A DNA stretch of 64,000 nucleotides from Dipteris shenzhenensis (Eukaryota), in assembly GCA_047967505.1 (NCBI GenBank), contig CM106538.1; one strand, 5' to 3'. Positions 26,710 through 60,069 of this stretch are shown piece after piece. The position numbers and the translations under genes are program-made. Positions within the stretch are counted from its first letter, which is position 1. Each line of letters starts with the position of its first letter. Below the pieces are notes generated by a model, which was not told the DNA's origin, searched no databases, and was given only the letters and a program-made list of their open reading frames with translations.

Positions 26710-27148
26710 CCGTCATCCTATTCTGCAGGCAATTCCTCCGTCCTTATCGGTATCTTCAACATCAGCAGTCCGTTGCGTCCTTGATAAGAATTGACTCGTT
26801 CCTCTCCTCAATCGTGACCATATTACTATATATGGCTTTTGTAAGATCTGTCAACATACTCCCGCTGCAGGCAGCAGGACACACTCACACTCCTGTGACT
26901 CATGTGGCTTCCTTTCGCTTTCGGAGTCGTGGCTCAGTTCTCCTAGTGAACCGCCCTAACTACGGCGGTTCCAGTGCGTTTCCGTGGACAGCTCCATTTA
27001 CGTAAGTCTATTGTGTCCTCGATCCGCTATTCACTCTGCTTTTGACATTTGGATCCCCCAACAGCGTGCTCTGAATGTCGCCTCTGTTTAGCATTGCTCC
27101 ATCCCCCGTCCATAAGAATCTTGCCCCCAACGGATATTGGATCCATCC

Positions 27149-29839: not shown

Positions 29840-30719
29840 CTACATTCTTTCCTTTGCCTTCTTTCTTTTGACTTGAAGTTCCATATTTGGGTCAATTGGC
29901 ACGTGAATTTCATGAGATTCGATTATTTCTTATTTTGTTTCCTTTGGATTTAATTGACATGGTCATTACTTGAGACAAATAGATATGCACAAGAGCAACA
30001 TGCACGCACATTGGGTTTACATGAATCCATGCGAAGGTGGAATCCTTTGGACAGACATTCTCTTCTTAGGTTCTTGGGTGTGTCATTAGGAATGCCTTGC
30101 AATTCATGGGCAGTAAAAAAATTTATTGGAAAAAGGGAACACAGGGAGTTGTTACTTTCCCAAACTATGGAGAGAATATGGCCGACTACACCAACTATCA
30201 ACAAATCAAGTGTTTTTTGCATATTAGAGACAATTCACAAAGGCCACTTACTAGGGGAACAGCTAGAGAGCACAAACTTTGGCAAATTATACCCATTAAA
30301 GAGAGGTTGAATGCCAATTTTCAGTAGTATTAAAATCTTGGTATGTCAGTCACAGTGGGTGAGAGGATACCATTTAAATGTAAAATGAATCCATCCCATG
30401 TGTATAATATGAAGAAGCCTCGCAAGTTTGGTATGCAACTATGGAACATGTGTGACTCCAAGGTAGGCTATAACTATTCTTTTCATGTATATGATAAGCT
30501 TCCATGTCCAAAGCTCTCTTTTCATGTAGTCTCAAGTCTTGTTAATGACTTGAGAAGAAAGGGTCATCACATTTACTTTGATAGGTACTTACATAAAGCT
30601 TCTAGGGCACTTGAGAGATGAGGGGGACATGGAGGAGTAGGTACATATGTTTGGTATAGGAAACACTTTCCTAAGAAAGATTTGCTCCACATGCAAAAAG
30701 AGCCTTGTGGAACTTGCAA
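29840..30719 (+). pseudogene. piggyBac-like (DDE_Tnp_1_7/PGBD) transposase, N-terminal half
   Basis: ETNRYA, LLRFLGVSLGM, KLWQIIPIKERLNANF, VYNMKKPRKFGMQLWNMCDSKVGYNYSFHVY, GHHIYFDRY, GVGT...RK motifs. Confidence 0.85.
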
Positions 30720-31299
30720 CACTACAGTGGCATAGGTCCATTTTCGATAAAAATATCGACCTTTTTTACACTTTTTTTTTTTGACAGGCGCAAAGGTCGT
30801 TATTTACGTTGCGGTAGGCATCAAAAAAGAACGGTCGCTATATAAGCGTTGCTATATAGCGACACTAATAAACGTTGCTATATAGCAACACTGGTAAACG
30901 TCGCTATATAGCGACACTGGTAAACGTCGCTATATAGCGACACTGGTAAACGTCACTATATAGTGACGATTAACAGAAGCTTTAAAAAACATTAGTGGGG
31001 CTAAACAAGGCCATAGCAAGCTCTATTTTGCCCCACTAATGTTTTTTATTTAGTAATTATAAAAGAATGTTTTTTATTACAAAATTTCCCTTATGGAAAG
31101 GGTGATACAAAATCGCTCAAATGAAGCGAGTGACAGAAGCATATACATGTCGAAGATATACAACATTGTTTGTTACAAAATTACCCTTTCGAAAAGGGTG
31201 ATACAAAATTGCTCAAACGAGCTGATATACAAAAGCATATATATGGCGAAGTATATGCAAACTACTACTATTACTACTACTGCTCATCCGAATCATCGT

Positions 31300-32842
31300 C
31301 GTCCTCATCCTGCTGGCTTGATCCTTGGCCCTCGTGAGCTGCGTCTACTTCCTGGTCCTCGTGAGCTGCGTCTGATCCCTGGCCCTCGTCGAAGTCATGT
31401 AAGCCGAATCCCTCATCATCACCACTCACCTCCACTGATGGGATGTTTGAGCTTTGATTCTAAGAGTGAAACCATATTAATTAGAAATTAGATTGGAACT
31501 TAAAGAATAAAACAGTTTAAAAAGTGAGATTAAAAGTAGTAGACTTATACCATGCGAGCAGCCACCTCAACCCAATCGACTGTCGCTCCTAGTGCCTCCT
31601 GTGCTCAATAAACCACAGCTTTGTTCCTACGCAAAACGAGCGTCTCGTCTCTGTGTTTGTAGGAAGGTGACCAATCGCAGCTTGCTGTGGGCCCAATTTA
31701 CGAGAGTTAGATAAAGTGCATGCAATATGTAGTAAAACAAATAGAACAATATATTAAATGAGAAGAAGTAGACTTACCACGGTTGCCTCGAACGCCAACC
31801 GTTCACCTGCACCAAAGTGCGAAGTACCTATGGAGTCCAGCCATCTCCTCTTAGCCCTCCTCCGACCCTCGAACATTTCAAGATGGTCCCTAATTAGCTT
31901 CGTCTGCCTAGTTGGGTTTAGCTTTCCCCTTTGCGATGGAAGTATACAAGGTTGACCTACGATGCTTCAAGACCAAACCCATGTGCTCTCACATGTAATT
32001 CTCATTGAACTCCCAATTTGGGGGGTTAGGGTATTTTCTTTTCAATTCATTGATGACTGCCTGCTTCTTTTGGTCATCTTGGTACCACAAGTCAGTAGCT
32101 ATGCTGCTCCTAAAGTGGTGGCTCATCAATTGCCTCATGGTGGCCATCACTGGTGTGTCCTTTTTATCCTCTATTATCTCTCCAGCAGCCGTGATTTGAT
32201 AGGACAGGTGCTCGACTGGGTAAGGAGGACTCATGGTAGTGGCATAGTCAGAGTGAGTAGTGTTTGTGTGAGCGCTTCCGGAGCAAGAAGTAGTAGTGGG
32301 AGTAGGAGAGGGCAAGGGACCTGACTGGTACTGGGTCTTAGGACTAAGTAGAGATCTGTAGGAATGTGAGTGTGCTGACTCGTCTACATCTCCTGAGTCA
32401 GCACAACATAAGCGACCCCTCCTGCTCTTCCTTCCCTTATGATGGGCATGCCTAGGTGATGACCCCTCAGTCAAAGGGGCTAGAGGGGACGACTAGATAG
32501 TAGGTCCAGCGGTCGGTGTAGGAGAGAGATTTGCTGAGGTCCTCTAGGATAGCAGAGAGAAGAATCTTGCTACCTCCTCATCGGTCATCTGTGTGACAAA
32601 CTCGTCGGGACTCCCGACAAAGCCATGGGCTGCTAGCAAAGGAGTTTCCAAGGGGTAGTCAGAGTGCTACACCCGACAAGAGTCGGGCTAGGGGTAGTCG
32701 TAGGGGTAGGCCTCTGAGGTATCGCCTGAGTGGAATCAAAGTCCTTTGGAGAATAGAGATCATAATGTCTCCTCCTATGTGGGTTTTTGTACTCGTCGGA
32801 CGTGCGATGTGATCCCATGTCTAATTTGGGGGGATTGGACAA
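31300..32842 (-). pseudogene. CACTA second ORF (TNP1/Transposase_24-like, spliced, decayed)
   Basis: ORFs 32633-32842 and 31989-32474 continue to ...SIGTSHFGAG...ATV followed by a GTAAG donor; homologous copy at 61400-63030. Confidence 0.55.
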
Positions 32843-32929
32843 ACGTATTCACAAACATGAAAATAAAAAACAAAAGACAAGAGCGAGTAAGAAGCGGAAA
32901 GCATATGAGGGAAAGCATAAGAAGCAAAA

Positions 32930-34290
32930 GAGAAGGAGAAGTATAAGAGAAGGAGAAGAGAAAACAAAGGGGAAAAGAGATTGAAAGAGGGAAAAAGAAC
33001 CAAATATGCATAAGAGAAAAAAGAGAGAAAGCATATGCATAAGAGAAAAAGAGAGAAAGCATATGCTTATGCTTATGCATAAGCATATGAGCATATGCTC
33101 ATGCATAAGCATAAGCATAGGCATAGGCATAGGCATATGCTTATGAAAAGAAGATAAAAAGAGGGAAAAAGAAGAGAAGGAGAAGGAGAAGGAGAAGAAG
33201 AAGGAGACATATGGTCATGCATAAGCATAAGTATAAGAGAAGAAAAAACATATGCTCATGAAAGAGGGGAAAAAGAAGAGGGGAAAAGAAGAGAAGGAAG
33301 AGAGGAAAAGAGATTGAAAGAGGGGAAAAAGAAGAGGGGAAAAGAAGAGAAGGAAGAGGGGAAAATGAGCATAAGCATAAGAGAAGGAAGGGGGGAAAAG
33401 AGATTGAAAGAGGGGAAAAAGAAGAGAAGGAAAAGAGGGAAAAAGAGATTGAAAGAGGGGAAAAAAGAAGAGGGGAAAAGAGATTGAAAGAGGGGAAAAA
33501 GAAGAGGGGAAAAAGAAGAGGGGAAAAGAAGAGAAGGAAGAGGGGAAAAAGAAGAGGGGAAATGAGCATAAGCATAAGAGAAGGAAGAGGGGAAAAGAGA
33601 TTGAAAGAGGGGAAAAAGAAGAGGAGGGAAAAAGAGATTGAAAGAGGGGAAAAAAGAAGAGGGGAAAAGAGATTGAAAGAGGGGAAAAAGAAGAGGGAAA
33701 AAAAAGAGAAGGAAGAGGGGAAAAGAGATTGAAAGAGGGGAAAAAGAAGAGGGAAAAAGAGCATAAGCATAAGAGAAGGAAGAGGGGAAAAGAGATTGAA
33801 AGAGGGGAAAAAGAAAAGGAAAGGAGGGAGAAAGAGATTGAAAGAGGGGAAAAAAGAAGAGGGGAAAATAGATTGAAAGAGGGGAAAAGGAAGAGGGGAA
33901 AAGAAGAGAAGGAAGAGGGGAAAAAGAAGAGAGGAAAAGAGCATAAGCATAAGAGAAGGAAGAGGAAAAAAGAGCATGAGCATAAGAGAAAAACAAAGAA
34001 AGCATATGATTATGCTTATGCATGAGCATATGAGCATAAAAGAAAACGAGAGAAAGCATAAGCTTGAGCTTATGCATGAGCATATATGAGCGAGATATGA
34101 GCATATGAGCATGCATAAGCATAAGCATAAGCATAAGAATAAGCATAGGCAAATACATATGCTTATGAAAAGAAGAGAAAAAGAGAGAAAGATTATGCTT
34201 ATGCTTATGCATGAGCATATGAGGGAAAGAGGGGGGGAAAGAGAGAGGAAAAGAGGGAAAGAAGAGGAAATAAGAGAAGAAAGGGAAAGA
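32930..34290. repeat. Purine-rich minisatellite within CACTA
   Basis: Shuffled units GAGATTGAAAGAGGGGAAAAAGAAGAGGGG and GCATAAGCATAAGAGAAGG. Confidence 0.9.
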
Positions 34291-35439
34291 GAGGGTTCCT
34301 ACACCCATCACTGCAACTTAAGGCGCTAGCTGCAGGCTAATGCAAATAAAGAAAATAACAAAAGGAAAAAAGAGGAAGCACTTTCTTACTTGGAATAGTC
34401 TGGCTCGGTGTTTTGTGGGCTGGCCCTACAAAAGAGAGGAAACATACCATTTTTTAGATAACTTAGAGAAGCAACTTCTCAAAGGGATTGGGTTGATGAG
34501 ACAAGCATAAGCCTACAAATAAGGAGAAAGCATAAGACTACAAACAAGGAGAAAGAGGAGGAAGAGAAATACAAAAAAGAGAAGAGGTGAGTCTTCTTTC
34601 TTTCACCAAATCTCGTTTTTTGTCCTTAACCTCTGAAAATCAAGCATGAAAACTAGCACATAGCCTTAGCAATATAAGGAGAAACATGCTTCAACACTCA
34701 AAAGAGACTCACCTTCTTGAAAAACTTCCTTTCACACAAGCAGAGAGGGAGAAGGGTGGAGAGGGAGCACAAGTGTTGGGAGAGGGGCTGGGTAGGGGTG
34801 AGGAGTGGAGAATAGAGAGGAGGAAAGCGAGGTCGTCGAATATAAGGTGAGAGGAGAAATTTTTGCTTTTCTCGCAGTAGAGATGTGAAAGACTGCATTA
34901 CGCAGGGTTTCGGGTTTAAGCCCCTAGCGTCACTATATAGCGACGTTTATATCCAAAAAGCATCACTATATAGTGATGAAACATGGCAAAATGTTGCTAT
35001 ACAGAAATGGAATAGGGAAAAGCGTCACTATATAGCGATGGTTCAGGCTTTCTCTCTTTTTCTTTCTTATCTCCTCTCTTTTTCCTTCTTTTTTCTCCTC
35101 TCTTTTCTCATTTTTCTCCTCTCTTTTCTCCTTTTTCTTCTCTCTTTTCTCTCTTTTTTCTCCTCTCTTTTCCTCTCTTCTTCTCTCTTTCCTTCTCTTT
35201 TTTCCCATGTGAAGCTTCAATAGCCTACCATTGAGCAAACAAATACAGACTTCTCTTATTCTAATTCAAAGAATGCAAGTCTGTAAATGTCTGCTCAATG
35301 TCTTACAGGTATTCTAAGCTTAATGCTCAATGTCTTACAGGTATTCTAGCCTGTAGGATTAGTGACATGACTTCTTTGTTGCTTTGAGAATCATCATTAT
35401 TCGAAGCTTATGTATGTTTGAATTGTGATAGGTTGCTCT

Positions 35440-38400
35440 AGAAGATGTTGCTTCATCAAATACCATGTCCGCATCAAGAGATGAAGTGAAGAAGATGCTA
35501 ACAATGGTGGCTATGGATTATGATACAATCCATGCTTGCCGCAATGACTGTATTCTCTTTAGTCATGAGCATGGAGATTTGGCTAGTTGTCCGAAGTGTG
35601 GGGAACAATGATATAGAGATGACTTGCAGGGTGAGTAGATACTGGTAAAGGTCTTGAGACACTTTCCCATCATTGCAAGAATATAGCACATGTTCCGATG
35701 CAAATCCATAGCGGAGTTGATGACTTGGCATGCATCTCATCAGTCCATTGATGACACATTGAGGATTCCCGCAGATTGTGCAGCTTGGAAGCACATAGAC
35801 AATCAGTGGCCGGACTTTGCGAGGGAGCCATGCAAATTACATCTTGGGCTTGCCATGGATGGCCTAAATCCTTTCGGGTTATGCTCGACATCTTGGTCGA
35901 CATGGCCCATAGTCTTGGTGAATTACAATATCCCACCATGGCTAACAATAAAGAAGGGACACCTCATGCTTGCACTACTTGTCTAAGGAAGTACAAGGCC
36001 AAAAATATGGACGTGTACATGGCACCTTTGATAGAGGAGTTACAGATCTTATGGAGAGGAGTGCGGGTCTTTGATATTTCTAGAGCTCCTAGACATACCA
36101 ATGATATTTTGTTCAGGGGTATCTTGATGTGGACCATGCATGACTACCTAGGATATGGAGAGTGCGCAGGTACGTGGTTGTGTCTTTACATGTATAATAT
36201 AGGATTATGCTTTTATGAGTATCTTTCACACACGTCTTTTACTAACACATTCATGCACGCGTGCAGGATTTGTTACAAGTGGGTACCATGCTTGTCTTAT
36301 TTGTGGACCGGGTTTGAAGTTGCTTGCACGATACTTCAAACATAGGAGGAAAAATGTTTATGAAGGTCATGCTCAATACCTTCCGCTAGATCATCTCGTG
36401 TGTGGAGGTCAGCTTGATCCACCACCACCATATTTGAAGGCAAGTAACTGGATTTAGACTTGGAGGGCAAATGGAGAGGAACCTCCTCGTGGTATGAAGA
36501 GGCTATTGATCTTTCACGAGCTTCCTTATTGGGGTTAGTTACAAATCAATCATCTCTTGGATCCCATGCATATCTTCAAGAATGTGGGGGCTACTATTTG
36601 GGCACACTTGGTTGGTTCTAAAGACTCGAGAGGAGTGCGAGAAGACTTGCATGCTATGAATAGGATGTATCGTTTGTCGCCCCAAGTGCGTGCTTCGAGA
36701 GAAGTTATTCCCCTGAAAGCAACATGGATCCTCTCCATGAGAGAGAAGGCAGCGATCAAGGCGGACATTGCCTCTTTTCAAACACCCATAGGGTACATGG
36801 GTTGCTTGAAAGGAGCATTTTCAAAGGACAATAAGCTTAGTGGGCTCAAGTCCCATGATTGGCACAAGGTCTTACAGGGATTCTAAGCTGTAGGATGAGT
36901 GTACCAATAATCATGATGCATTAGTGTAATTATGATTATGTTATATTATTGACATGACTTCTTTGTTGCTTTGATAGTTCATCCTCCCAATTACAATAAA
37001 AGGGTGCTTACAAGAAGATGTTAGAAATGCTATATTCAAGATCAGTGGTATTGTGAGGTATGCTTACTATCAAATCGCATTGATTGCATTTTCTTCAATT
37101 TAATATGAACGATTTGTAGACTGAGTATGAATATATCTTACATGGGCATGTGAAATAGGTGGATATCTCAAAAAGAGATCTCCATATCGAGCATCGAGAA
37201 GGATAGGGTGGAATCCATCGAAGTCGTATGCTTGCTTGAGAAGCACTTTTTGTCGAGCATTATGACAACTCAAGTGCACTTGCTTGTGCACATAGTTGAT
37301 GAGGTGGCCATTGTAGGTACCATTCATAATTGGTGGATGTTTTTTCTCGAGTAGTTTATGAAAACTTTGAAGGGATTTGTAAGGCAAAGAGCAATACCAG
37401 AAGCAAGCATGGTAGAGGGATGGCCTGTGCAAGAGTCATTAGTATATATCACGGAGTTTCTTGTATCCACAGATCTCGATATGCTAGAAGCTTGGCATAA
37501 CAAGGATGATGATTGCATCGTTGGCGAGGTTCCCCTAGAAAAAGGGATTGAAAGAAAGATGAGTGAAGAGCAAATGGAGAAATTCAATAAGTTTTGTATC
37601 CTCAATAGCAAGGAGATGCAGAAGTGGATTGAGAGATATGAAGCGGCCAAAGCAGAAAGAATAAATGCAAGGACGAGATTCAGAGTAATGTACAGGCGAT
37701 CGCAACCATATCCATGGGATCTCGCCCTTCTCGCCACTCACATGTCAATTGATTGGCTACAACTGGCTCTCTGTAAAGCCGAATGTGATGGAGAGATAAT
37801 AAACAAGCGCGAGCGAGAGTTATCATCTGGATGTATGATGCATGCAAGTTTCTTTCATCTTGACATAATTAAGTGATTATTTGTTGGCAATATACGCTAT
37901 AAAATAGATGCATCTTCATTGTTTTAATGATGATCTTTTACAGCAAAGTACAGTGCATTATGGTCATATGGATGACATTTTCGTGTGGAATGCATCGATT
38001 CAAAGAGAGTCACGTATGATTGTGGAGTCATGGCTAACTTCAAATACGATAGCCGAGCAAGTGCTTCGGATATCAATCTTCTCTCCTCATAGTTGGATTA
38101 TTGTGGAACCATACGTGAAATCTATGAAATTTGTTTTAGATGATTTAGTCTTTTCATTTTTGATGTAAAATGGTTTAGAACTATTTACAACGGTCCCCAT
38201 GCGACAGTGAGAAAAGACAGTAGCGATTTCTTTCCAATAGACTCCACCAAACTTTGGACTGATGAAAGTGATACTTTTATTCTTGTCGAGCATTATGAGT
38301 AGGTGCATACTAAGGATTTAATTAATTGAAGCTTTGGTTTTTAAAGATCCATTGATACATATCCTTAAGCATAATTTGATATATGTAATTGACGGCATTT

Positions 38401-38560
38401 GGCACCCATCTTTAATATAGGTGGTTTTTCATCCGGATCGTTCTGATCGAAGATGGTGGTACGTGATCCAAGTTGCACCATGAAGTAAGCAAAATTTTGA
38501 AGATAGAGATGTGGATATGGAGATGCCACTACCAATGCCGGATCCAATTGATCCAGATGG
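35440..38560 (+). pseudogene. CACTA TNP2-like transposase (Transposase_21/DUF4218 region), spliced, with stops
   Basis: IHACRNDC..CPKCG, AWKHIDNQWPDFAREP..LHLGLAMDGLNPFG, TWPIVLVNYNIPPW, LMWTMHDY, DPMHIFKNV, GLKSHDWH, MKTLKGFVRQRAIPEASMVEG. Confidence 0.93.
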
Positions 38561-39250
38561 ATCTAGCAAATAAGATGAAGATCATAATATGAGCCAAGAG
38601 GAAGATGCGCATAATGATATCCTACGAGAGGAAGATGGAGATCATGATATTGAGGAAGAAGATGACGATCATCAAGAATCACCACACTTTATTGTAGAAG
38701 ATGATTAAGTACTCTTAGGTGAACGTACGATGCTAGAGTACGATGATGATATAGGAGATCAACTCGGTATAGAATTAGAGATAGACTTATTTTGCACGTT
38801 AGACTTGGCTCAAGATGAAGCCGTTGATGTAAATGCTCTTCATTGACTTTTTTCATCTCAAACTTGGACATGAATATATGAGCTTCAAAGGCTTGGTGTA
38901 CATGCTCTTGTACTTTTATTCTCTCAAAGGATCAAACATGTAAAATTTTGTCATTGAGAAAAACTATCTTTTAATGTCGGTATGAGAAAAAACACTCTTT
39001 GTAAGTCTCAGTGTTGCTATATAGCGACCATTCACAAGTCTAATAAGTGTCGCTATATAGTGACCATTCACAAGTCTAATAAAGGTTGCTAGATAGCGAC
39101 ACTCTTTAAACGTCACTATATAGCGACGTTTGCCTAAAGTCACTATAAAGCGATGCTTAACGAATCTCGCTTTGATTATCGACGATTAGCGCCCCGCGTG
39201 CACTAATCATTGGTCCTTAAGCATCGGAATAAGACCCGTGTGTAGTAGTG

Positions 39251-39869
39251 CAAGTTTGCTTTGCAACTCAAAAATGCCTTCTTGCTTGTGCATGGATGGA
39301 CAAAAAACCCATATTCTTTGCTTCAAATGTTTTTGGGATGAGGAGAGGGGATCTAAAAAGGAAAATTTCCAATGATGTGAAGGTTTCACTTCCTTGTCCA
39401 AAAATTGCAATTCAATATAACAAATTCAAGGCTAGATGTGACACCTTTGATAGTTTGGTCCTTGGCCAATGATTATAGCATGGAGAGTGCTATGCATGGT
39501 TGGAAATGGTGGCATGCCTTATTTTGGGGCTTGATGGACTCAATCTTTACAAATGCATGGATAATATGGAGGGATATGAATGATAAGGTGATGATAAGAA
39601 GGATGTCAACCGATTTAAGCTCATGCTAAGGCTTCAAGAGCAGCTTGTTGATAATGCATTTGCGAGCTTGTATTCAACTAGAAGCATAGGCCAAAATGAT
39701 TTGTATTTGGGAGGACACATGATTATGAGAATGCAGGATGAGGCACGTAAGTTGTGTGTTGTTTGTGGTGCAAAAATAGCAGGAGATTGCTTTTTGAGGG
39801 TAAAGAAGCACAAGAAGCAAAGGCATCTAGAACAATTTACAGTTGTGTAAATACAATAAACACATCATG
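39251..39869 (+). pseudogene. piggyBac-like transposase, C-terminal half
   Basis: AWMDKKPIFFASN, PKIAIQYNKFKARCDTFD, KWWHALFWGLMDSIFTNAWII, RKLCVVC...RTIYSC; resumes immediately after the CACTA TSD. Confidence 0.85.
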
Positions 39870-40157
39870 CATTAGGGGAGAATTGGCATCTCAAAAGGAA
39901 CTCCAATTAGTGTTTCCTAATTTCAAGGGATTAGAGAGTGATTTGAGGTGTACCAATGAGAGTGCTAGAAGATGTCGAGCAATGGTATGTTGAGGTGGAG
40001 TGTGGGTAGGCCTACAGAGAGTCCCTATTGGTTGCTCCCCTTACACTAGGGACCACCCAAACCATCCCCCCCCCCCTAACCCATGTTTGACCCTCCTACT
40101 AGGTGCACCTCCCCCACATGAGCCCAAAACTGCATTCAATGGGATGGTAGGGCCCAA

Positions 40158-41077: not shown

Positions 41078-41299
41078 GGCCTTTTGTATATATAAGCATA
41101 TATTTAAATGGATATTTCAATGGATACATGACTACATGTCTTTATTATTTGTTTTAAGTTATCATTGCTCGTCATGAATTCCATTGTATTTTGTTTATGT
41201 CCTTGATGATATATTTTCTCCATCATTTTAATTGTGTTAATTTAATAAATTTCTAGCCAATTTAGTATCATTTTCACCAATTCTGGGTATTGAGAGTTC

Positions 41300-41575
41300 A
41301 TTTCTGTCAAATCCTGAAGGATTTTCACCATAACACAGAAGGGAAAAGTGTTCGGCATGTTGCCAGAAAGCCCAAAACCCACCACAGTGTGAATTTGGGC
41401 ATTCTAGCAACTAAAGCCCAAACCCACCATGGCGTGAATTTGGGCATTCTGGCAAGTTGCAAGAATGCCCAAATTCACGCCGTGGTGGGTTTTGGGCTTT
41501 CTGGTGTCTTGGCAATGTGTCAGACACTTTTCCCTTCTGCGTGACAATGAAATTCCTTCAGGATTTGACAAAATT
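41300..41575. repeat. Internal inverted repeat/hairpin between convergent genes
   Basis: TGTCAAATCCTGAAGGA..CAGAAGGGAAAAGTGT..GGCGTGAATTTGGGCATTCT versus AGAATGCCCAAATTCACGCC..ACACTTTTCCCTTCTG..TCCTTCAGGATTTGACA. Confidence 0.9.
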
Positions 41576-41758
41576 CAAAACTTACATTGAAATGATCAAT
41601 TATAGCAGTCATAGAAATAGAAAATACACAACAATACGGTAGTGTAGAGAATGTCGATATATTTTATTTAAAAAAATCGGCCCTTGGGCCTTAGATACAA
41701 GATAGTGTCTTCAAGGGCAAGGGGTGGCCTAACACCTAAGAGTGGGCTATAAGAGAAT

Positions 41759-42714
41759 CTAGGGCTTCAAACTTGGGTCACTCCATAGCCGCTTCGCCAA
41801 AGCCATGTCCTTGTCCATGACCGTGACGTGCTTTGCATGGATGGCACACAAGTTGGCATCCTCGAATAGAGCAGAGGTCAATTGCTCCACAGCCTCTTGG
41901 AGTGCTTCCATAGCTCTTATGCTAAAGTCCTTGAATCCCTGTGCTATCTCCCGTACCACACGTTGGAAGGGAGCATGTGGGATTAAGTTGTCAGTGGTAT
42001 TCTGCATTTTCTTGATCTCCCTCAGGGCCCGTGCTCCTAGCTTTGCTTTGTACGGCTTCCTGATTCTTGGTGGGGGCCTCACAGGTACCCAAACACCTTC
42101 CCACGACCTCCTATCTGCCTTGAACTTCTTCCATTGCTCTTGTCTGCATTGGTCCTCCTCCGAGTCCTCCTCTCACTGATGTCTAGAGCTTTGGCCTTCT
42201 TTGGGATGGGGCTTCCTTGGAGTCTGCTTTACCCTCCTCATGGGCTCACGGATCATCTCTGTGATGGGTTGTATCTCTGGGAGAGGGAAGATGGTGCTCT
42301 TCGTGGCAATGTGTTGGCCCTCAGGAAGCCTCTCTATGTCCAGAAGGTTATCCAACACATTTTGTTTGATCCGGAGAGGGCTCTCATGGGGGGAGGGGAA
42401 GGCCGAGGGGAAGGTTGAGAAAGGCTGAGGGTCGAGGCTGAGGGGAAGGTTGAGGGAAAGGTTGAGGGTCAATGACGGTGAGGGGAAGGCTGGGGAGAAT
42501 ACTGAGGGGAAGGCTGAGGCTAAGGGGAAGGCTGAAACTAAGGAGAAGCCTGGAAGACCTCATAAGAGTTGGGGGAGGGCTCACAAGAGTCAAGGGAGGC
42601 ACCACTGGACTTGGATAGGTTTGTGTGTGTAGATGCCATGGAGGTGGTGGAGCTAGAGGAGGAAGGGTGGAGGCGGTGTCCAGTGGGTCTAGCCGTGTTC
42701 TTCACTCTTGCCAT
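41759..42714 (-). pseudogene. Divergent histone H3-like gene with a ~210-aa N-terminal tail (one frameshift, in-frame stops)
   Basis: Starts MARVKNTAR; histone fold [92 protein letters not shown]. Confidence 0.9.
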
Positions 42715-43104
42715 TGAATAATGAGAGTTAGGGTTTTTAAAAACGTTTTGTAAGGGCCCATCATGTTTTGACATCCCTTTTAATTACGTTTAGGGTTTCA
42801 TCATGCCCCTACCCTCGCCCTAACCCCTCCAACCCCCCCCAATCTTGTCGCCCTCCCCCTCCTTGCCCTCCCCCTACTTGCCCTACCCACACCCGTCGCC
42901 CTCCCCCATACCCCCCATCCCCCCTCCCCCCACCCTTGCTACCACTCCACCCCTCCCTTCTCTCCCCCCTCCTTCACCATGTCCCCACTTTCCCCAACGT
43001 CATGTGAGTACAAAAATTGTGGTCAAAATAAGCAACATATTAAAGAGTGAGTACACAAATTGTGGTCAAAATAAGCAATATATTTATTTCATATTTGTAT
43101 ACAA

Positions 43105-44996
43105 TTACACCATAGCTTCCGTTGGTGGTTGGACCCATCTGCTCCCTTCTCTCACTCTAGCTTGCAACCAACGTGCGACTCCTCGACTCCCTATGGATGC
43201 TTTCCAAGCACTATGCCTTCTATTCTTTGATACAATTTGAACTGCTTTTGCAAGTTCTGATGCCTTTGCATTTTCAGACTTCAAAGTCCTTCCTAGTAAA
43301 CATCTAAAAAACCAGTCGAACATCTCATGCAATGCATTGCTGCGAGTGACACCACCACCATGCCTTGAGTTCTTGAAGTAGGCTGCCTTGGCTCTATAGT
43401 GCAACTTCTCCATGCCTTGTGTATTCCAAATGGAAAAAGGACCCCAATTTTGTACAAACCATGGTCCGTGTGCATAGAGAATATGCTGCAAACATGATGA
43501 GAATCAAATCAGCAACAACAAAAACTATTTATAAAGTAAGTGCTAAATATTACAATGGTGCCAAGATTACCATGTAATGCGTAATGTGCGACTCCCCCCA
43601 TGCTTTCACCATTAATTGCATAAACTCTTTCATAGCCATCCTGAACCTTTCATAATACATCTCATCGATTTGAACCTGGTGAAGCAATTTTATCAATGCA
43701 TCTACCTTTGTCCATACTTTAGCTCTCAAAGTTGCTACTTGAGGATCAGAAGCCTTATTGGTCGTGCATTCACACAATGCTTTCCAATATTCCCAACCGA
43801 AACTACTTTGAGACAATGTATGTTTGTCTTTGTCGAGATTGTGGTTCAATAGGAATCTCCTTGCCTTCCCTCCACCCATGGACACTTTTGCAAGAAGATT
43901 CTATGTTGCCTCGGACATTTTCTTATCCTCGTTAAGTTTGACATGTCCTCCATGGAATCCCATCTCTGACAATAGCTTCTTAGCTTCTGCAATGCACCGT
44001 GCGGATACTTCTTGCGGAATTAAATTCCAAGCATAAACAAGATGCAAATACAACAACTTATCAAGCATGCGCAGTTCTGTGTGTAAAGTACATATGTGTA
44101 CTCTCTCAAGTGGGATGGGCAAGATGGGATCTCATTTTGGATCCTTCTTATCGTGATTGTGAGCTTGCATTTGGCAAGATAGAATGCCATTCTCCCATTG
44201 TAAGCCAACCTTTTGCTTACATTGCGAACACATGCAATAAAGGCATGTGTTCATTACATTTGCCCCTATATCACAACCATGCAAGCACTTGAGGGTTTTT
44301 AGATCACCAGCAAGATGCCATTCAACTTGAAAGGCTCCATGGCCATTGACTGTCAATGTTTGCCCTTCCTCTTGTCTTCGGATGGTCGATGGGATTCCTG
44401 TTCTATCCTTTTGCACTCGTTCTTCTGCCTTCTCTCATTCCTTCTCTACGGCTGATCGAACTTGATTGTATATAGATCTTTCCAAGCCTTTTTTGGACTT
44501 AGCTAGCTTACAGAGTGACTCTTCTAATTTATGTCGCTCCAAGTCCAATGCATTTTGCTCCAAGTCCAATGCTTTGGCTTTATCATGAAGATCATGGTTC
44601 TCCCTTTGAAGATCCTACATAGAGTTATGCATTGCAACAATGGTGCTATTTCTTAAATGTGCTAGCATCTTTGCTTCAGCTCTGCACATCTCGTGCTTGC
44701 ATAGCCATTTAATGAGCATTGTTTAACCAATTGCAATAACCAAGCAACCCCACATGTCCATTTCCAACAAATTGAACTAGCTCATGCATTGTATGGAAAG
44801 GAGGGCTCTTTTGGTTGGCAAGATCTAAAGGATATAAGGATCCTTCTACCCAAAGGTTGAGATGTTTCTTTCCTTGAGAATGAAGACTGTGGATTTTGGA
44901 AGCTCCCCTCAATCCTAGACTACATGTGCTTGCATATTCAGCCTCCAACTCTAAGTGAACCTGGTACTTGTTGGAGATGTCCTCGAATGGTGCCAT
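43105..44996 (-). pseudogene. RAG1/Transib-like DDE transposase, spliced (intron 43486-43570), decayed and probably internally deleted
   Basis: Ordered motifs LAGDLK..CLYC, ICTLH, MGGGKARRFL, ITHYM|HILYAH, GPFSIWNTQGMEK; N-terminal coiled coil; first catalytic Asp region not found. Confidence 0.75.
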
Positions 44997-45059
44997 GACT
45001 AAAGGATTGTAGAGAAGGAGAAGGCGTGGAGATGCAAGCTTGAAGGAGCAACACGCAGG

Positions 45060-45535
45060 AAGAGGGAGGCGAGGAGGAGGAGGGATGGGGGAGGGAGGAC
45101 CAGTAGTTAAAGAGAAGGAAAGGGGGGTAGACCAACAGGTGTGGAGGGTGAGGAGGAGTAGGCATGGAGGAGGAGGGAGGGAGGAGGGAGGAGTAGGATG
45201 GAGGGGGGAGGAGGAGCAGTGGTGGAGGAGGAGGGAGGGGGAGGGGAGGAGGAGCAGGCATGGAGGAGGGAGGGAGGGAGAGGGCAAGAGGAGCAGGCAT
45301 AGAGGAGGGAGGGAGGGAGGGGGAGGAGGAGGAAGGGGGAGGAGGGAGTGAGGAGGGGGAGAGGGAGAGGAGGAGAGGGGAGGGGGAGGAGGGAGGGAGG
45401 GAGGGGGAGGAGGAGGGAGGGGAAGGAGGGAGTGAGGAGGGGGAGTAAGGGAGGGGGAGGGAGGAGGGGGAGGGAGGGAGGGAGGAGAGAGAAGGAGGGG
45501 GAGAGAGGGAGGGAGGAGAGAGAAGGAGGGAGGGA
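45060..45535. repeat. G/A-rich low-complexity tract upstream of the transposase
   Basis: (GGA/GGGA)n; the Pro/Gly-rich ORFs here are artefacts of it. Confidence 0.9.
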
Positions 45536-46166
45536 AATCAAAATTTGAATTTTTTGGTTTCCACCTAGGAGTAAGAGTTGTGTAAGAGGTGGGGTCACTT
45601 TTGGGCTTAACCCACCTAGGTGAGGGGAAGTTAGGACTTTTTGGGATCTACCTTGGCCCTTTCATTTGGACTAATCCATTTCTTAATCCATTCCTTATGA
45701 GGCCCTTTTGAGACCCCAATTCTCCCCTAATGGGTGAATTTTTCATGCTAGTTTCGTTAAGAAGTGAAACTTTTATATTAGTGTCAACAGTTTCTATATC
45801 CTAATTAAATAAATGTTTGAAACATTTGCCAGGATTTGAAACTTTTATACAAAAAATATGAAGTTTCACCAGGACTTGCATCTTTTACTTCAAAATTGAA
45901 AGGAAAAGATATAAAAAGCATACTATGTTATATTTATATTGTGAAACTAAAAGAATTACCTCAATAAAATCTCGCCAAGATTTTATATTAATATTAGCTT
46001 CGATAAAAACATCCCTGAAACACATGTTTGTTGATCCTTGTTTTTGCCTGTTTCATTCTAAGGATGTTGTTACTTCTTTGAATGATGGTGGAAGGATACA
46101 TTGAAGAATAGGGCATTGAGAAACCATCTATAAGTTATCGTGTTGGCTTCTTGTTTGTATATACAT

Positions 46167-48727
46167 TGTTGAGATATGGTGCCATGAGCACATAGATTAA
46201 AGGGCAAAGGTATGTGATAAGGAAAGAATTAAAGTAGCCACCCTAGGATGTGGACTACAAGATGTGAAGATGTGGATTGAGGATATCCACAAGGAGAGAT
46301 GTGGATGAGAGGATCACACATGTGTTGACTATTCAAAGGGTACTCTCTATATAAGAGGCCTATCATGTATGGTTGAGAATAGCACATTGGCATAGTTTGA
46401 GTGTTTCATACTTTCTGTCTCTCTCCCCATGGCTTTCCATATTTGGTTTGATCCTCCATGATCTTTATGCTCATTAAGTGATAGATTAGGCTAGTACGAT
46501 CCATACTTTGACATGGTATCAGAGCTTAGGTTTAGCTAAGCCTAGATTGAGAGGTTTACATCTTTCATTCCGTTGATGAACTATTTTTGTTCATTTCGCA
46601 TTGAGGAATTCTATTCTATTGAAGTCCAAAGACCCTCTGTAGCACAAAGATTTTGTCAGGAGAGAGTTCTCCGTAAGGTTTAATGGACATGTTCTTGGTC
46701 GATAATGCTTCTCTGTAGGGTCTTGTGTACGACTATCTCTTGTGCTCCCTAAGGAACAACTCGGCTTCTACAGGTTGATTCAACGAGTAGCAGAGTTGCA
46801 GCTCTCCACAGCCATCGGGCTCTACTCAAGCACACTCTACAACGAACTGTCTCACAGTGACTCACAATGGTGGCCTCCAAGCATGGCCTCTTCGACGACC
46901 TTATACAACACCCGCACGCGACGTCGTAGCTGCAAGCCCCGTCCACCAGCGCCATAGCTAAACGAGCTGCCACCACCTTCTACCTCCAGCGCTCCTACTA
47001 CCTGCTCCAAAGACAACGCCAACAACGGGATCATCTCAACAGCAAGGATTGATTCATAGTTATTATCAAGCACTTCATAGTGGCAGCTCGCACTCAGCCT
47101 CGACGCGGTTACGTACTACGTATCATTCTGAGATTCGTAAAATTTTGAGTCTAGTCGTCTGAAACATTGCGGGCAGCTAGCTGCAAAATTATAACCCCTA
47201 GTGAGGGAAAGGAATCAGGTAAGAAAAAAAGGAGGTGCAGGCGACGTTTGGATACCGGATTTCCTAGCTCCTTCCACAGTCGACGGCTGCCTTCCACAAC
47301 GGCCTGTGCGGCTCTCCAAACGACCTTACGAGCTTAGAAAGCTTCGACGAAATGACCTTACGAGCTCATCTCTGATCATCTGAAGCACCAAGCAGACTCA
47401 CAGTGCGCTCCTCTAAGGCTCCTTGGATAGGCAACGACCTCCAAAGCCTTTGCACACCAGCCAAACTCTATTCGACTCAGCCAGCAGCAACGCTAGTAGG
47501 ACTTCAGGCTCCATCAGTCTTACACCGACGCCTCATGCTCAGACGACACCGTCCTCGCAATCCACGCTCCACCACGTCGTCTCACTGCAAATCTTTTCTC
47601 TCTTTCTCTCTAAGATTGTAAACCACGACACGTGGTAGGATAAGATTGAACTATGGTTAAGTTTAGCCTTACCTTGGTCAATGGTTAAGTTCAGGATTGG
47701 TTAACTCCCACATCACCAGTGCCACTAAGCACACAGCTTCTTGCTAAGCACAGTTTGAAATTCAGCATATGAATCCCTCTGCCACATCATCAAGGCATAG
47801 AAACTTCGATAAGGCGTAACTTCCAATCCAGGAAGAATTTGGACATGTTCCAAAAAGGGAAAGTGATCGTCTTTTCAGGCTCCACGCGCCTGTCATGTTA
47901 GAATTATTGTATGCAATTAGACACTGCCAATATTGAAAGTATTCAATTGGTAAGACCTTTGCAACAAATGAAAAAGCAATGCATGAATGTAGAAAGCATG
48001 CCAAAAGCACAAGTGTATGAGATGACCATAGCCCGAAGCATGGCATCCACACAAAGCATCAAGGCACATGGAAGAACAAAGCATCATGCATGAAGCTACA
48101 CCAAGCAAAGAAGCAAACGACATCGTCATCAAGCCATGAGCCAAAAGGTGACATCAATGGAATGTATTGAAAAGCAAAAACCTTGCCAACCTTGCCTATG
48201 TTTTGTAATCAAACCTGACCACCTGAGAGTAGCTATGAAAGCACCCAGGGGAGGTATTGACATGTAAAAGCCACACTTGACCACCTTAAGTAGCAATGCA
48301 AGCACTAAGGGGAGGTGATGGAATGTAACTCACATCTGACCACCTTGCAGTAGCCAAAGGATCATGGCACCAAGGGGAGGTGTTGAGATATGGTGCCATG
48401 AGCACATAGATTAAAGGGCAAAGGTATGTGATAAGGAAAGAATTAAAGTAGCCACCCTAGGATGTGGACTACAAGATGTGAAGATGTGGATTGAGGATAT
48501 CCACAAGGAGAGATGTGGATGAGAGGATCACACATGTGTTGACTATTCAAAGGGTACTCTCTATATAAGAGGCCTATCATGTATGGTTGAGAATAGCACA
48601 TTGGCATAGTTTGAGTGTTTCATACTTTCTGTCTCTCTCCCCATGGCTTTCCATATTTGGTTTGATCCTCCATGATCTTTATGCTCATTAAGTGATAGAT
48701 TAGGCTAGTACGATCCATACTTTGACA
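46167..48727 (+). mobile_element. Non-autonomous LTR retroelement (TRIM/LARD-like), recent insertion
   Basis: 347-bp LTRs 46167-46513 and 48381-48727 (TGTTG..TGACA), identical by eye; PBS TGGTATCAGAGC 46514-46525; PPT AAGGGGAGG; TSD TACAT; no recognisable gag/pol. Confidence 0.96.
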
Positions 48728-48899
48728 TACATGTATCTTGATTTCTTGGTCTTGAAATTATTTTTTATGTCTACAATGTACAAAACTCTTTTGGCTGACA
48801 TGACATTGGTGTTTTCTCAATGTTTCTTGAAGCTTAGATTGAATTTTGCTCTAGGTATTTAATTTCCATTACTATTTTTTAGTTTTTCAATTAATGCCT

Positions 48900-52439: not shown

Positions 52440-54975
52440 CACTACAAGACACGGGCCACTTTTCAACATAGATACCGATGCTAAATACAAATGATTTTTA
52501 AGAAAACAAGTCAAAAGTGTCAGAATGTCTATCAATGTGCGCATCGCAAAGAATGCATCGGTATCATTGTCGGTATGGGCACTGATATCTAAGTTTTCTT
52601 AGTGTCGATATAAGCGTCAATATTAGCATTGGTATATATCGATGCTGCAATGTCGGTATATACTGATGCTTTGATAGAATTTAAAAGTATTTTTGTGCAA
52701 TAGGGTGGGGTTGTTTCAGCCCCATCCTACCCTACAAATCTTTTTCTCCATCAGAATCATTTTAAAATGTTACAAAGAGGTCTACAAAATCATGTTACAA
52801 TGTTACAAGAAAGGTCTACAAAATGATGTGCACTACAAAATGGCAAAAGTGTCGAAGTTCAAATTGGCAAAGCTACCGAAGTATTGTGCTACAAAATGGA
52901 AAAAGTGCCAAAATACAAAATGACAAAATGTCCTATCCTACTCCTCCTCCTCCTCCTCCGAACTCTCCTCGAGTAGGAAGAGAAAGAAGTAGAGGATGAG
53001 AAGAAGGAAGAAATAAGAGAAGGAAATGATGAAGAAAGGATAAGAAAGAGAGAATAAAAGAGAGGGAATAAGATAAGAGAAAGAAGAAGAAGACATGAGT
53101 AAAAGAATAGAGTAAGAGAGGAGTAAAAGAATAATAGAGGCTATGAATAGAAAAAATAATAAGAGAAAGGAGTAAGAGAGGGAGAATAGGAAAGAGATTA
53201 GTGGAATAAAAGAGAGAAGGAGAGAAGAGAAGAAGAAATTGAAAGAGAGGAGGGGAGGAGAAAATGGGCAAGGGTTCCTAGGCCCATCACTACAGCAGCT
53301 AGCACTTAAGGTGCTAGCTGTAGGCCAATGTATGGATGAAAAGGAAAACAAGAGGGAGAGAATGCTTGTTCTTACATGTTAGAAAAGCTATCTACAAGAT
53401 CAATGGCATTGTTAGGTATTCTTCCTATCATATCACCTTGATTATATTTCAGACAATTTTAATTGATTGGTAGAAAATATTGAATCTCACGTGTGCTCAT
53501 GGAATAGGTGGATCCCACAAAAAGAAATTTCTATATCGAGCATCAAGAGGGCTCAAGTGGACTCCATGGAAGTTGTATGCTTGCTTGCGAAGCACTTTGC
53601 CTTAAGAAAAGGAGAAGAAGAAAGAGTTGGAAGAGAGGAAGAAAGAGAGGAGAGAGAAAGGGTTGAGAGGGGGGAAAAATGATCAGAAGGGAATAAGTAG
53701 GAAGAAAAGGAAGAAGACAAGGAGGAAAAAGAACATGAGAAGGAGGAGATGAGAAAGAAAGAAAGAAAGGAGAAAGTAAAGTGGAGAAGAAAGAATAAGA
53801 AATAAGAGGAATAAGAAAATGAATAAGAAGGAGATGAATCAGAAGAGCATAAGAAGAAAGAGTAGGCAGAGAAAGAACTAGAGGATAAGAAGAAAGAAGA
53901 AATAAGAGAAGGAAAGGAAGAAGAAATAATAAGAGAAGAGAGAATAAAAGAGAGGAAATAAGATAAGAGAAAGAAGAATAAGAAAGTAGTTAAAGAATAG
54001 AGTAAGAGAGGAGTAAAAGAATAATAGAGGCTATGAATAGAAAAAAGAATAAGAGAGATGATTAAGAGAGGGAGAAGACAAAAGAGAAGATAGGAATAAA
54101 AGAGAGAAGGCGAGAAGAGAAGAAGAAATTGAAAGAGAGGAGGGGAGGAGAAAAGGGGAAGGGGTTCCTATTCCCATCATGGTACCTATTGTTGAAGGTA
54201 CTAGTTGTAGTCCATTGTATGCACAGAAAGGAAAACAAGAGGGAGAGAATGCATGTCCTTACTTGGAGAGTATGTGTCTTAGGCACAACTACGGATGATC
54301 CCACATAGGGTTTTAGGTTTTTTCCCCTACAAAAGAGAGGAAACATACCATTTTTAAGAAATTTAAAATAGTTAGTGAAAGGAGGAGTTTGGAAAAGCAA
54401 CACACCAAAGGAACGGAGAGGAGACAAGGAGAAGCCTAAAAACAAAAGCAAAACACGAAAACAAGATGTAAAGATTACATATTCCTCTCTTTCATGATTT
54501 TTTTTTCATACATTGTTCTGAACTTTCATAGTTTTGAGAGAAAGAAAGGAAAGGAGGAGAGAAAATAAGAGAAAGGGAGGGAAACTAGAGGAGAGAGAGA
54601 AGGAAACATAAAGGAAAGACAAAGAAACAAAAAGAACTTGAAATAGGAGGAGATGAGAGAAAGTCTTACCTTGAGGTTAAGAGGGAGCTCTTGCAAGTCT
54701 TTGAGGTGGAGAGGGAGAATGTAGGAGAGGATGGAGAGATGGGAGGGGGATGGAGGAGTGAGAAGGCAAGGATGGAGGGTGATTGCAAGCCAAAATCTAG
54801 GAGGGAGGATGCAAGGAAGAAAAATACAAATGGCATCATGGGAAGGGAGGGTGTAGGTTTTTTTTTGTGGTACCATCGGTTTAACTGACAATGGTTTTGG
54901 CATTGCAGGATAGAAAAGCAAAAGTGGTGGTATGGGCATCAGTATATACCGACACCCATATCGATGAAACAAGGG
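52440..54975. mobile_element. CACTA derivative, left part (right boundary uncertain)
   Basis: CACTACAAGACACGGGCC terminus; ATACCGA/TCGGTAT subterminal motifs; purine-rich tracts; TNP2 fragment RWIPQKEISISSIKRAQVDSMEVVCLLAKHF (53505-53600) homologous to ~37157-37250. Confidence 0.75.
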
Positions 54976-56019: not shown

Positions 56020-59000
56020 CTAGTATGCTTTTGAATCTTGTTCAGAGTCATCAGATTCTGGTATTGCATTTTCATGTGATGGGTTAAGCCTAGCCAAATG
56101 ATGTTTAATATGTACAAGGATAGGATCAAGAATTGTGATACATTTTTCAACATCATAGCCATAGGCTTCTTTTTGTAACATCGAGTCCTTGATTTCCAGC
56201 AATGAATAATGCTACTCACTTCCATGTTTGTCAAGCCCTCTTTATTTGGAATCCATTCACGTTTCTTTTGCAAGCAACCCTCATGATGGTTGTTTCACTG
56301 TGTATTTTTTGGGGAGATTTTTCAAAGGCTTTGGTTCATACCATAAAGCTGTGAATGTTATAGGAATTCCCTTTTGATCCCTTGCTATATGAGCAACCTT
56401 TGCCATACAAATTGGGCCACCTTGTTCATCCAACTCTGAATCTGCATCAGATGCCCAAACTATAACAAACATACACTCTTCAATCTCATCAGATGGTACA
56501 AACTCTGGTAAGGGTTTATCCCCCTTCCTACCACAATATTTTTGAAGTAAAAGGCATTGCTCAGCTTCTTCCTCATCTATTGTTGTATTTGTATCCAATG
56601 TGGATCTCGATGCCAGAGCTTCTTTTGGCTAAAAAGATTCAGAGTGTTCAATGCTTATTAAATTTTCTTGTTTTTGTAAAGATTTGACAAGTTCCTCAAC
56701 GAACTTGATTATCTCCCCATTCTTTATTGCCTGCTCAGGATATTTTTGCATCATACTTTGAAGATGTTTAATAATGGCATCCATGCCTTTCATTTCATCT
56801 ACATCAAGTGCTTTGTTCTTTACAAGAACAAATCTAGTTTCCTCCAATGGAGTTATTCTCTGTAATAAAGCATATGGCTCACTCCATAAATGATCTTCAT
56901 CCACTGAGTAGTGCTTCCATTGCATCACTTGAATATCATTATGCATGCTAAATCAGAAATAGTGTGGATTTGTGTGCCATGCTTCATCTCCCCCTTGTAA
57001 ATGTGGCTGTATGAATGCCCTCCAATCTACCATTCTCTCCAAGATAGCCACTTCTGATTCCTCCTTTTGAGAGCCTCCATTTTTTTTCCCAATTTGAGAC
57101 ATCATATCCTCCAATGTCAGATCATCCCTTGACTTTAACTCTCTAGAGATAACACTAAATATTTGATCTATGTCTTCATGTGTATGATCGACAAGAAGAA
57201 AACCAACTTCCACTTCTTCAAATATTTTCAATCCAACCAGCATAGAGCATAAGCCAAATATATATCTATTCTTATTTTCTCTCTAGCAGTTATCGGCATG
57301 TATACGCAAGGTGCGAGGTAAACATCTACATGCATCTCTTACCTTCTGTATTGCTTTTATGATGGATGTTGCGACTTGGTTACTATCATGTTCATGCAAA
57401 TAATAAATCCATACATTGCATAAAAGATTCAAAATCCATGCACTAATACTCCACACAAATGTGTTTCTAGTCCACGTTTACCCTCCAATGGCGGTGGGGT
57501 ACGTCTATACCTTGGTAATGTTGTTGTATTCTGATCCACGCCATCAATGGTAATGCACATGGACTTTTTGACATGCACAATAGCTTCCTCTCTGCAAGAG
57601 GCATACAACAATTAATCTAGCATCTTGCACATGAGTTAGATGGATTGTTCGCCATCTTATATATTTTCCTTACTTGTGCTCACATCAAATATGTTCAATG
57701 GCATTTTTCAATTCATCACATGTATTCCATTTTGACATCCTTTGCTTTGATGGTGTCTTGACATGGAAAGACTGTCCACACCAAATTTTATACAAGGTTG
57801 CCCTTGAAATCATGCTCTCTTCTCTATCTTATAAATTTTTATTGACTGTTCCAAGCACAACCTTCTTTGTCATTCCCAAAAGATGATGATGTTGGCATTC
57901 CACACTTCCATTCAGCATTGTTTGTGGAAGATGAGGTTGTGGTAATGCATGGTCATCAAGGATTTTCTTTAATGTTGCAGCAGCATTTCTAGTGCTTCTT
58001 TTTCCTTTAAGCTTGTAGGCATTTCCATGAATTTTGTGAATCACTTTGTCTTTTACCTCTACCTAGATGGTCCAATATGTACCATTAACCATGGGTTTCA
58101 ATTTGGGTTTACAATGTCTTGTCCTTGAGTCCTTATCACCTTGATGAAGAAAACAAGAAAACTCTTAAAGAAGATAGTTATGTGTATTAGTCCCTGTCTT
58201 ACTCCAAATGCTGATGCGCATGGCTTCACAATCATCTTTTGCAACTTTTCTTATGCAAAGTTTCCTACAACAAAGGCGCATAAGAGTCCTTTCTATATTC
58301 TCCTCATATAACATTACATGCCTCTTGGATTCTGGAATTGGTGCCATGATTTGTCGCTTCTTGGCACTCACATACTTTCTTTTTGTGATGAATAATGTCT
58401 TGTGTGTCCATGTTGTGTGTCCATTATCTGGCACTGAATCTATTTCCCTTGAATCTTCATCTCTAAAATCAAATGCAGAGTGCCATTGGGAATTATTTGA
58501 TGTCACTTTATAATATCTTGGAATTGGCAATCTAGTAGACAACTTGTTCATTAAAGTCAACCTGTTCTTCCAATGCCTCTTGAATTTTGTGGTTGAAATA
58601 TTTCTCCTTCACAATTAGATGTTCTGCCATCCATATGCTCCATGCTAGTAAGTACATTAGGACCATCACAAGTCTTATATGTTCTGCCATATCTATCCTC
58701 CATTCCAATGACAACATCATGATCATGATCATTAATATCAACAATTCTAGTGAGCATGTTTGAGTTGCTTCCAATACAAGACAAGTCTTCTATGCATGTG
58801 AGAATGTTTGAGTCGCTTACAATACAAGACAAGTCTTCTATACCAGTGAGCATGTTCAAGTCTCTTGCAACACAAGACATGTCCTCCATACTAGTGAGCA
58901 TATTGGAGTAACTTGAAACCTCTCTTGCATCAACATCACTTATTATAATGTCCTCAACACCTGAAAGCATGCCACTATGGTAGTCTTTAGAGCTACCATG

Positions 59001-59900: not shown

Positions 59901-60069
59901 TAGAAATAAAGCATTAGCAACTATAAAAAAACCCAACAAATCTCACACTTGAAATCAAAATACAATATATATTGATGTGTACCCCAACGTAAACCCTGAC
60001 CCTAAATTCTAAACCCTAAACCCTAACCCTAAACCCTAAACATAAACTCCAAACCCAAAATCGTAAACG

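Follow-up and report, generated by a model that had tools for sequence, protein, structure and literature searches.

The minus strand of the 64-kb window (the whole stretch of Dipteris shenzhenensis DNA that was analysed, 64,000 nucleotides) carries a single H3-like locus, which codes for an H3-type histone fold and is best read as a copy of a gene for a long-tailed H3 variant, most likely a fairly young pseudogene situated in methylated, transposon-rich DNA (we put the probability of this reading at roughly 0.55). As written, the copy cannot encode the 318-residue protein that a first-pass annotation of the sequence had proposed. The observations of that annotation are partly confirmed and its interpretation is partly supported. 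Features of the locus are listed in Table 1.

Table 1. Features of the H3-like locus, in order along the minus strand.
Feature	Position	Strand	Remarks
AAACCCTAA copy 1	42790-42798	-	plant telo-box type; 76-84 nt upstream of the first ATG
AAACCCTAA copy 2	42728-42736	-	14-22 nt upstream of the first ATG
First H3-N-terminus-like motif, MARVKNTARP	42685-42714	-	K4 kept; proline at the K9 position
Frame piece A	42541-42714	-	58 codons, Ser/Thr/Pro-rich; 0, 1 and 5 stops in the three frames
Tandem repeat	42393-42552		12-nt unit (10.3 copies) and 18-nt unit (2.9 copies)
Frame piece B	42176-42559	-	128 codons, same frame as the fold
Second H3-N-terminus-like motif, MRRVKQTPRK	42212-42241	-	K4 and K9 kept
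In-frame TGA	42173-42175	-	breaks the stretch colinear with relatives
Fold-bearing frame	42172-41762	-	137 codons, intact
Pre-alphaN motif KKFKxDRxxWE and proline run	42068-42133	-	common to four relatives
Histone fold (alphaN, alpha1, L1, alpha2, L2, alpha3)	41786-42070	-	from Pfam, PDB and AF2
Shortened loop 1, GFKDFSIRA	41912-41938	-	three residues below H3 length
TAG stop	41759-41761	-	ends the C-terminal extension, which is common to relatives
AATAAA	41663-41668	-	91-96 nt past the stop; putative poly(A) signal

The identity of the fold, first described as clearly H3 but divergent, is borne out by a match to the Pfam Histone family (PF00125, residues 35-129 of the 137-codon frame, E = 4.5e-28) and by matches to solved structures (best E about 3e-26, with H3 accounting for 60 of the 60 PDB sequences listed); it is about 55% identical to canonical H3. 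The AF2 model (mean pLDDT 79.2) places helices at residues 47-58, 66-76, 85-112 and 120-131, with pLDDT of 87-96 across alpha2 and alpha3 and a loop 1 of eight residues, and the best 50 Foldseek matches shown for it are H3 chains of nucleosome structures; this predicted likeness to H3 is expected from the sequence and is not independent proof of function. C109, H112 and D122 of the 137-residue frame occupy invariant alignment columns and are presumably equivalent to the H3-H3' interface residues C110, H113 and D123 in H3 numbering, and the interface stretch LCAIHAK...KD is retained.

Loop 1 is short, as the first-pass annotation had noticed: it aligns as GFKD---FSIRA with DFKTDLRFQSSA of H3, a gap of three residues, and falls below the canonical length of the H3 family. 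Among 139 aligned H3-family rows (three unmeasurable; 136 measurable, including the window), the spacing that separates the ALQ of alpha2 from the end of alpha1 is 14 in the window; 125 rows have 17 and a further 10 have 18-21, so that the value of 14 is unmatched among the 135 other measurable rows, all of which have a spacing of at least 17.

The differences between this fold and canonical H3 are not distributed at random. Measured against 48 divergent H3 proteins, a reference from which the window and its four relatives (see below) were left out, the fold keeps 24 of the 27 columns with conservation of 95% or more versus 3 of the 18 columns with conservation below 60%, a contrast reached in none of 10,000 permutations. 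A neutrally decayed canonical H3, the outcome that had been named as telling against a genuine variant, is therefore rejected, because the differences fall on variable columns. The four relatives keep 23-25 of the 27 conserved columns in the same test and so show the contrast as well; the divergence thus bears the stamp of selection acting on a functional H3. A long-lived functional gene and a fresh copy of one look alike in this test, which cannot tell them apart.

The coding capacity of the locus is a different matter. Where a single reading frame had been read from 42714 to 41759, stops on the minus strand leave three pieces instead of one ORF of 318 codons: TAG 42540-42538 closes the MARVKNTARP frame after 58 codons, and the frame of the fold is shut by TGA 42562-42560, open from 42559, and cut again by TGA 42175-42173. 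Since a single ORF is absent, a continuous product needs both a frame change inside 42559-42541, an interval at the edge of the tandem repeat, and read-through of a stop. The distance from 42714 to 41762 is 953 nt, which is no multiple of three, as expected after a one-base indel. In the non-repeat middle segment (42391-42176) the three frames contain 0, 4 and 5 stops, the fold's frame being the sole open one, and a BLASTP alignment with one relative (P0037) is colinear from just past the second motif, through the TGA, and into the fold; together, these two observations suggest that the TGA is a nonsense change in coding sequence and not part of an intron. We read the region of about 318 codons as formerly continuous coding sequence. 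The long Pro/Ser-rich tail of the first description stands as an architecture, which is matched by the 335-residue relative P0036, but much of it is simple tandem sequence of 12- and 18-nt units (42393-42552) and its frame is broken. The 12-nt array has an indel level of 11%, and a 21-nt repeat pair (42559-42599) lies beside the 12/18-nt array.

The same lesions would be explained differently if the locus were a working gene with at least one intron, the exon bearing MARVKNTARP being joined, for example, directly to an exon that holds the pre-alphaN motif and the fold, with the repeat, the second motif and the TGA left out, to yield a protein of 136-188 residues, the size of CENH3. In 23 one-intron GT-AG models the ORF that starts at the first ATG becomes uninterrupted, and an intron at 42558-42170 (389 nt) takes out both lesions together; telo-box motifs upstream and AATAAA downstream also suit a working gene. 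However, ORF-restoring pairs are expected by chance given the abundance of GT and AG (two-intron models number 1,673), the candidate at 42558-42170 has a G+C content of 55%, the same as the exons, whereas plant introns are usually AT-rich, and the segment that would be skipped is open solely in the fold's frame and colinear with P0037. We consider a spliced gene of this kind unlikely. Tiny introns were rejected as well: the GT-AG interval at the TGA spans 33 nt, which is shorter than plant introns, and an intron at the frame change must have a length of 2 mod 3, where the AG sites give 9, 21 and 27. The AAACCCTAA element, which we take to act as a promoter element, has seven matches in the window versus 0.74 expected from shuffles, and two of the seven are those just upstream of the H3-like gene.

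It is quite unlikely that the gene of about 318 codons is intact and that both lesions are assembly errors. The frame change lies beside the 12/18/21-nt tandem repeats, where consensus errors are common, and assembly errors typically include frame changes of this kind within repeats, which counts against reading it as a real mutation; moreover, the remaining sequence is open and constrained. The TGA substitution is nevertheless a less typical assembly error, and both the CpG observed/expected ratio of the locus and its unique loop deletion fit decay. We infer that the lesions are real mutations.

Both H3-N-terminus-like motifs of the tail were found where they had first been seen, with K4 and K9 as listed in Table 1. 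The pattern M.R.K.T.R occurs at just these two sites when the 64 kb are translated in all six frames, and with 0.01 matches per shuffled window the two motifs are taken to be real and not due to chance. Proline at position 9 is found in 2 of 325 motifs of this type from the stored H3 proteins (P0036 and P0040), and the K9 context of the second motif is PRKP, not ARKS. The reported absence of an ARKS-type K27 motif likewise holds in every frame of the locus. Residues 1-152 of P0106 align from the start of MRRVKQTPRK (42241) to 41786. A recent duplication giving rise to the two motifs was rejected (DNA alignment score 16, shuffle mean 16.9); their protein alignment has a score of 32, which 4 of 500 shuffles reach.

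An exhaustive HMMER search of 1.84 billion representatives with the read-through translation (X at the TGA) returned 10,212 proteins at E values up to 0.001, none of them close, and those that score highest are gene models containing more than one copy of H3. Four single-domain matches align past the fold: P0031 (132 aa), P0036 (335 aa), P0037 (337 aa) and P0157 (208 aa), all unnamed proteins from short ENA/Logan contigs whose clusters are singletons or pairs. The window and these four relatives possess a pre-alphaN motif of the form [RW]-[KQ]-K-F-x-x-[DE]-[RK]-x-x-W-[ET], followed by a proline run before alphaN, along with LIP.A.F.R.V in alpha1 and an extension of the C-terminus that ends in L[KR]. 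A profile of the 40 residues before KPG in the four relatives, made without the window sequence and run against 2,321 sequences (278 stored proteins, with few exceptions relatives of H3, plus 2,043 ORFs from the six frames of the window), picks the fold frame of the window at E = 8.4e-4, compared with about 1 for the next ORF of the window and 3.3 for the top scorer among some 275 further stored proteins (almost exclusively H3), a near-copy of P0157 aside. P0036 begins with MARTKQTARP, and so combines the rare K9-to-Pro change with the pre-alphaN motif and the C-terminal extension. The four relatives differ from the window in that their folds are just 44-52% identical to it, loop 1 in them has the H3 length or exceeds it by one residue, and their tails have nothing else in common with that of the window.

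In a tree of the fold only (57 rows and 104 columns, without plant CENH3 and with few starred branches), the window is joined to P0031 with support of 85/73, unstarred. This tree splits the window and the four relatives, and forcing them together costs 6.8 lnL, a constraint that the AU test does not reject (p-AU 0.371).

Closer kin did not emerge from other searches: no relative more than 58% identical was found in protein, metagenome or viral searches. A word-based protein search with the fold gave 14 matches among 20 candidates, none close, and a profile search with the family alignment was dominated by gene models with at least two tandem canonical H3 copies, P0036 and P0157 being the only family members among the 120 matches listed. 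The tail of P0036 matched 1 of 1,484 candidates, which was P0036 itself. Of the 496 stretches in the metagenome scan, 311 encode relatives of H3; the 80 best are 39-58% identical, and the pre-alphaN motif is absent from 11 translated metagenome stretches. The viral scan gave matches in 2 of 9 stretches, neither of them kin, one being the H4-H3 doublet of a giant-virus bin, and for the fold the Protein Atlas returned nothing but generic histone clusters. A search of the literature by full text, which cannot match sequence motifs, gave no description of the pre-alphaN motif or of a transposon-encoded H3 in the portions of the papers available.

Like CENH3/CENP-A, the window gene combines a fold of the H3 type, about 50% identical to H3, with a long and divergent N-terminal tail and a C-terminal extension. 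CENH3 differs in possessing a loop 1 longer than that of H3, as had been pointed out in the first-pass annotation, and this agrees with the measurable CENP-A-like rows, whose spacings are equal to or longer than that of H3 (P0013, 17; P0010, 18; P0004, 21), whereas the window has the H3 length minus three and so lacks the loop 1 of CENH3. A dead copy of the host CENH3, duplicated or retroposed, would account for the long Ser/Thr/Pro-rich tail behind a MAR.K start, for a 13-residue stretch resembling LIP.APF.R.V (which we take to be a plant CENH3 motif), and for a fold without an intron, unlike plant CENH3 genes, which contain introns; a working parent would also pass on the pattern of constraint. 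Such an origin appears quite improbable, however, given the shorter loop 1 (14 versus 17-21 in the measurable CENP-A-like rows), the position of the window in the fold tree apart from the CENP-A-like cluster of P0009, P0010, P0004, P0007 and P0013 (a tree without plant CENH3), and the AATAAA at 41668-41663, after which no A-run, the mark sought for a processed pseudogene, was found.

Arabidopsis sperm-specific H3.10 (HTR10/MGH3) and H3.15 are H3 variants in which an altered tail removes the normal K27 context. The window gene resembles them in lacking that context, but H3.10 and H3.15 are near-canonical in length and fold. Variants of this sort embody the reasoning of the first-pass annotation, by which nucleosomes without normal K9 and K27 contexts might resist silencing marks, or the tail might serve as a decoy for readers and writers. 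According to the available part of a study of plant H3 genes (PMC4357034), H3.1 and H3.3 carry the signatures A F S A or T Y H L at positions 31, 41, 87 and 90. Aligned to H3, the window has A, R and E at positions 41, 87 and 90, and nothing equivalent to position 31, so the absence of the signature residues indicates that it is neither H3.1 nor H3.3. By the criteria in the same portion of that study (PMC4357034), the window gene, judged on its sequence, falls into the heterogeneous plant 'H3-like' class, and it has in common with the atypical HTR genes described there an H3 fold, off-signature residues at 41, 87 and 90, an aberrant N-terminal part, and the lack of an intron in the fold. Unlike the 'H3-like' genes as presented there, it possesses a tail of about 200 residues with KKFKxDRxxWE-polyPro, two H3-N-terminus-like motifs, a three-residue deletion in loop 1, and a broken frame.

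The window resembles plant nuclear DNA, is rich in transposons, and includes gypsy-type ORFs for RNase H and integrase. A CACTA element (30720-39250) starts with CACTACAGTGG, ends with ...GTAGTAGTG, is bounded on both sides by the target duplication CAA, and contains 26-nt subterminal repeats, inverted subterminal repeats (39009-39131) and tnp2 transposase ORFs (35755-37876). Direct repeats of 2.2 kb that are 88% identical (30720-32901 and 60881-63100) both start with CACTACA and are the 5' ends of two CACTA elements; the second copy starts at 60881 and runs past the end of the window. Just before it, three close AAACCCTAA units (60011-60039) lead into approximately 1 kb of direct and inverted 40-nt repeats (60019-60999). 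Location of the H3-like gene inside the CACTA element was rejected, the gene being 2.5 kb beyond the end of the element. A piggyBac-type transposase gene (29954-30618 and 39233-39847, both +), unusual for plant-like DNA, is apparently split by the CACTA insertion (30334-30618 matches DDE_Tnp_1_7 of piggyBac at E = 9.9e-8; the downstream half was spotted by eye only). ORF pieces at 56284-57282 (-) belong to another transposase-like gene with DUF7869 (ORF 56956-57282, E = 1.3e-29). Two direct repeats of 348 bp (46167-46514 and 48381-48728), which are 100% identical and separated by 2.2 kb, resemble the long terminal repeats of a small element inserted very recently, and a MITE-like foldback with 50-nt arms that are 94% complementary and a 45-nt tandem unit (41297-41578) is situated just downstream of the H3-like gene. 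Purine-rich minisatellites of the GA/GGA type (33000-34300, 44940-45650 and 52900-54200) give rise to long spurious ORFs.

Four ORF pieces in different frames (43108-44434, -), which share the strand of the H3-like gene and lie immediately upstream of it, look like a transposase-like gene of an unnamed family; they have no Pfam match, and their Protein Atlas neighbours are unnamed. Inverted repeats at 39786-39934 and 45671-45814 (score 63, versus 22.7 +/- 3.6 and a maximum of 36 in shuffles) bracket both genes; a 30-nt core (CATTAGGGGAGAATTGG..TCTCAAAAGG) can be discerned in them, and their ends are undefined. The H3-like gene might on this evidence be an accessory gene of a DNA transposon together with the transposase-like gene, supplying an H3 without the K9 and K27 contexts, or else a tail that acts as a decoy. 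The upstream ORFs resemble unnamed eukaryotic proteins (the nearest named neighbour, with a weak score of 0.78, is DUF4218), and the CpG depletion of the locus is of the kind seen in transposable elements. Against this, the part of the repeat that matches best lies inside the arms and no target duplication was found, the upstream ORFs match no Pfam family, and the gene is outside the CACTA element. Furthermore, chromatin genes captured by transposons are readers, remodellers and SET enzymes in the available part of a survey of such captures (bioRxiv 10.1101/2021.11.30.470311), a part in which histones go unmentioned. Carriage of the H3-like gene by a transposon is thus weakly supported, and a role as transposon cargo is very unlikely.

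The preferred reading, a pseudogene copy of a long-tailed H3 variant gene, draws on the composition of the locus as well as on its broken frame. The CpG observed/expected ratio of 41762-42714 is 0.28, with a TpG+CpA excess of 1.14, compared with 0.41 for the window and 0.41-0.56 for its transposons, and with 0.85 for an AP2-domain ORF (27116-27862, +, E = 3.7e-12), the sole examined stretch that resembles an unmethylated host gene. The H3-like locus has the CpG depletion of long-methylated DNA; such depletion also occurs in body-methylated genes, which counts against the decay reading. The TGA at 42175-42173 could derive from CGA by deamination. Just two lesions or so in 953 nt point to a recent inactivation, corresponding by a rough, uncomputed reckoning to about 2% neutral divergence. 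With so few lesions, an intact frame of 137 codons and telo-boxes upstream, the gene could be active or only just disabled; we infer that it is silent.

The ancestral product of such a pseudogene would have had about 318 residues, starting with MARVKNTARP and carrying a tail of about 200 residues and the KKFKxDRxxWE-polyPro motif ahead of an H3 fold competent to pair with H4, with a short extension at the C-terminus. For most of its history the gene would have been constrained in the manner of a functional nucleosomal H3. The constrained fold and the retained H3-H3' interface residues make it most likely that the ancestral protein was incorporated into nucleosomes as a variant H3, and the pre-alphaN motif is the best candidate for a site that may bind a dedicated partner, either a chaperone or a reader. 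The present copy would then have acquired two breaks of its frame, the change at the edge of the tandem repeat and the TGA, along with the three-residue deletion in loop 1, which is found in no relative and may be read as a sign of decay.

A broader possibility, also unlikely, is that the locus belongs to an undescribed, ancient class of long-tailed H3 proteins, defined by the K9-to-Pro change, the absence of a K27 motif, and a KKFKxDRxxWE-polyPro docking motif, with intact, expressed members in this organism and in other eukaryotes; members of such a class might be carried along with DNA transposons and form nucleosomes that evade silencing through K9 and K27.

As it stands, the locus represents a mostly ordinary outcome, the relic of a divergent histone gene among transposons. 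Atypical H3 variants can rewrite chromatin states, and a tail motif common to a few unnamed long-tailed H3-like proteins hints at a class of variants with a partner of its own. The copy described here is probably dead, and its value is that of a pointer, the pre-alphaN motif and the architecture exemplified by P0036 being handles by which intact relatives may be sought.
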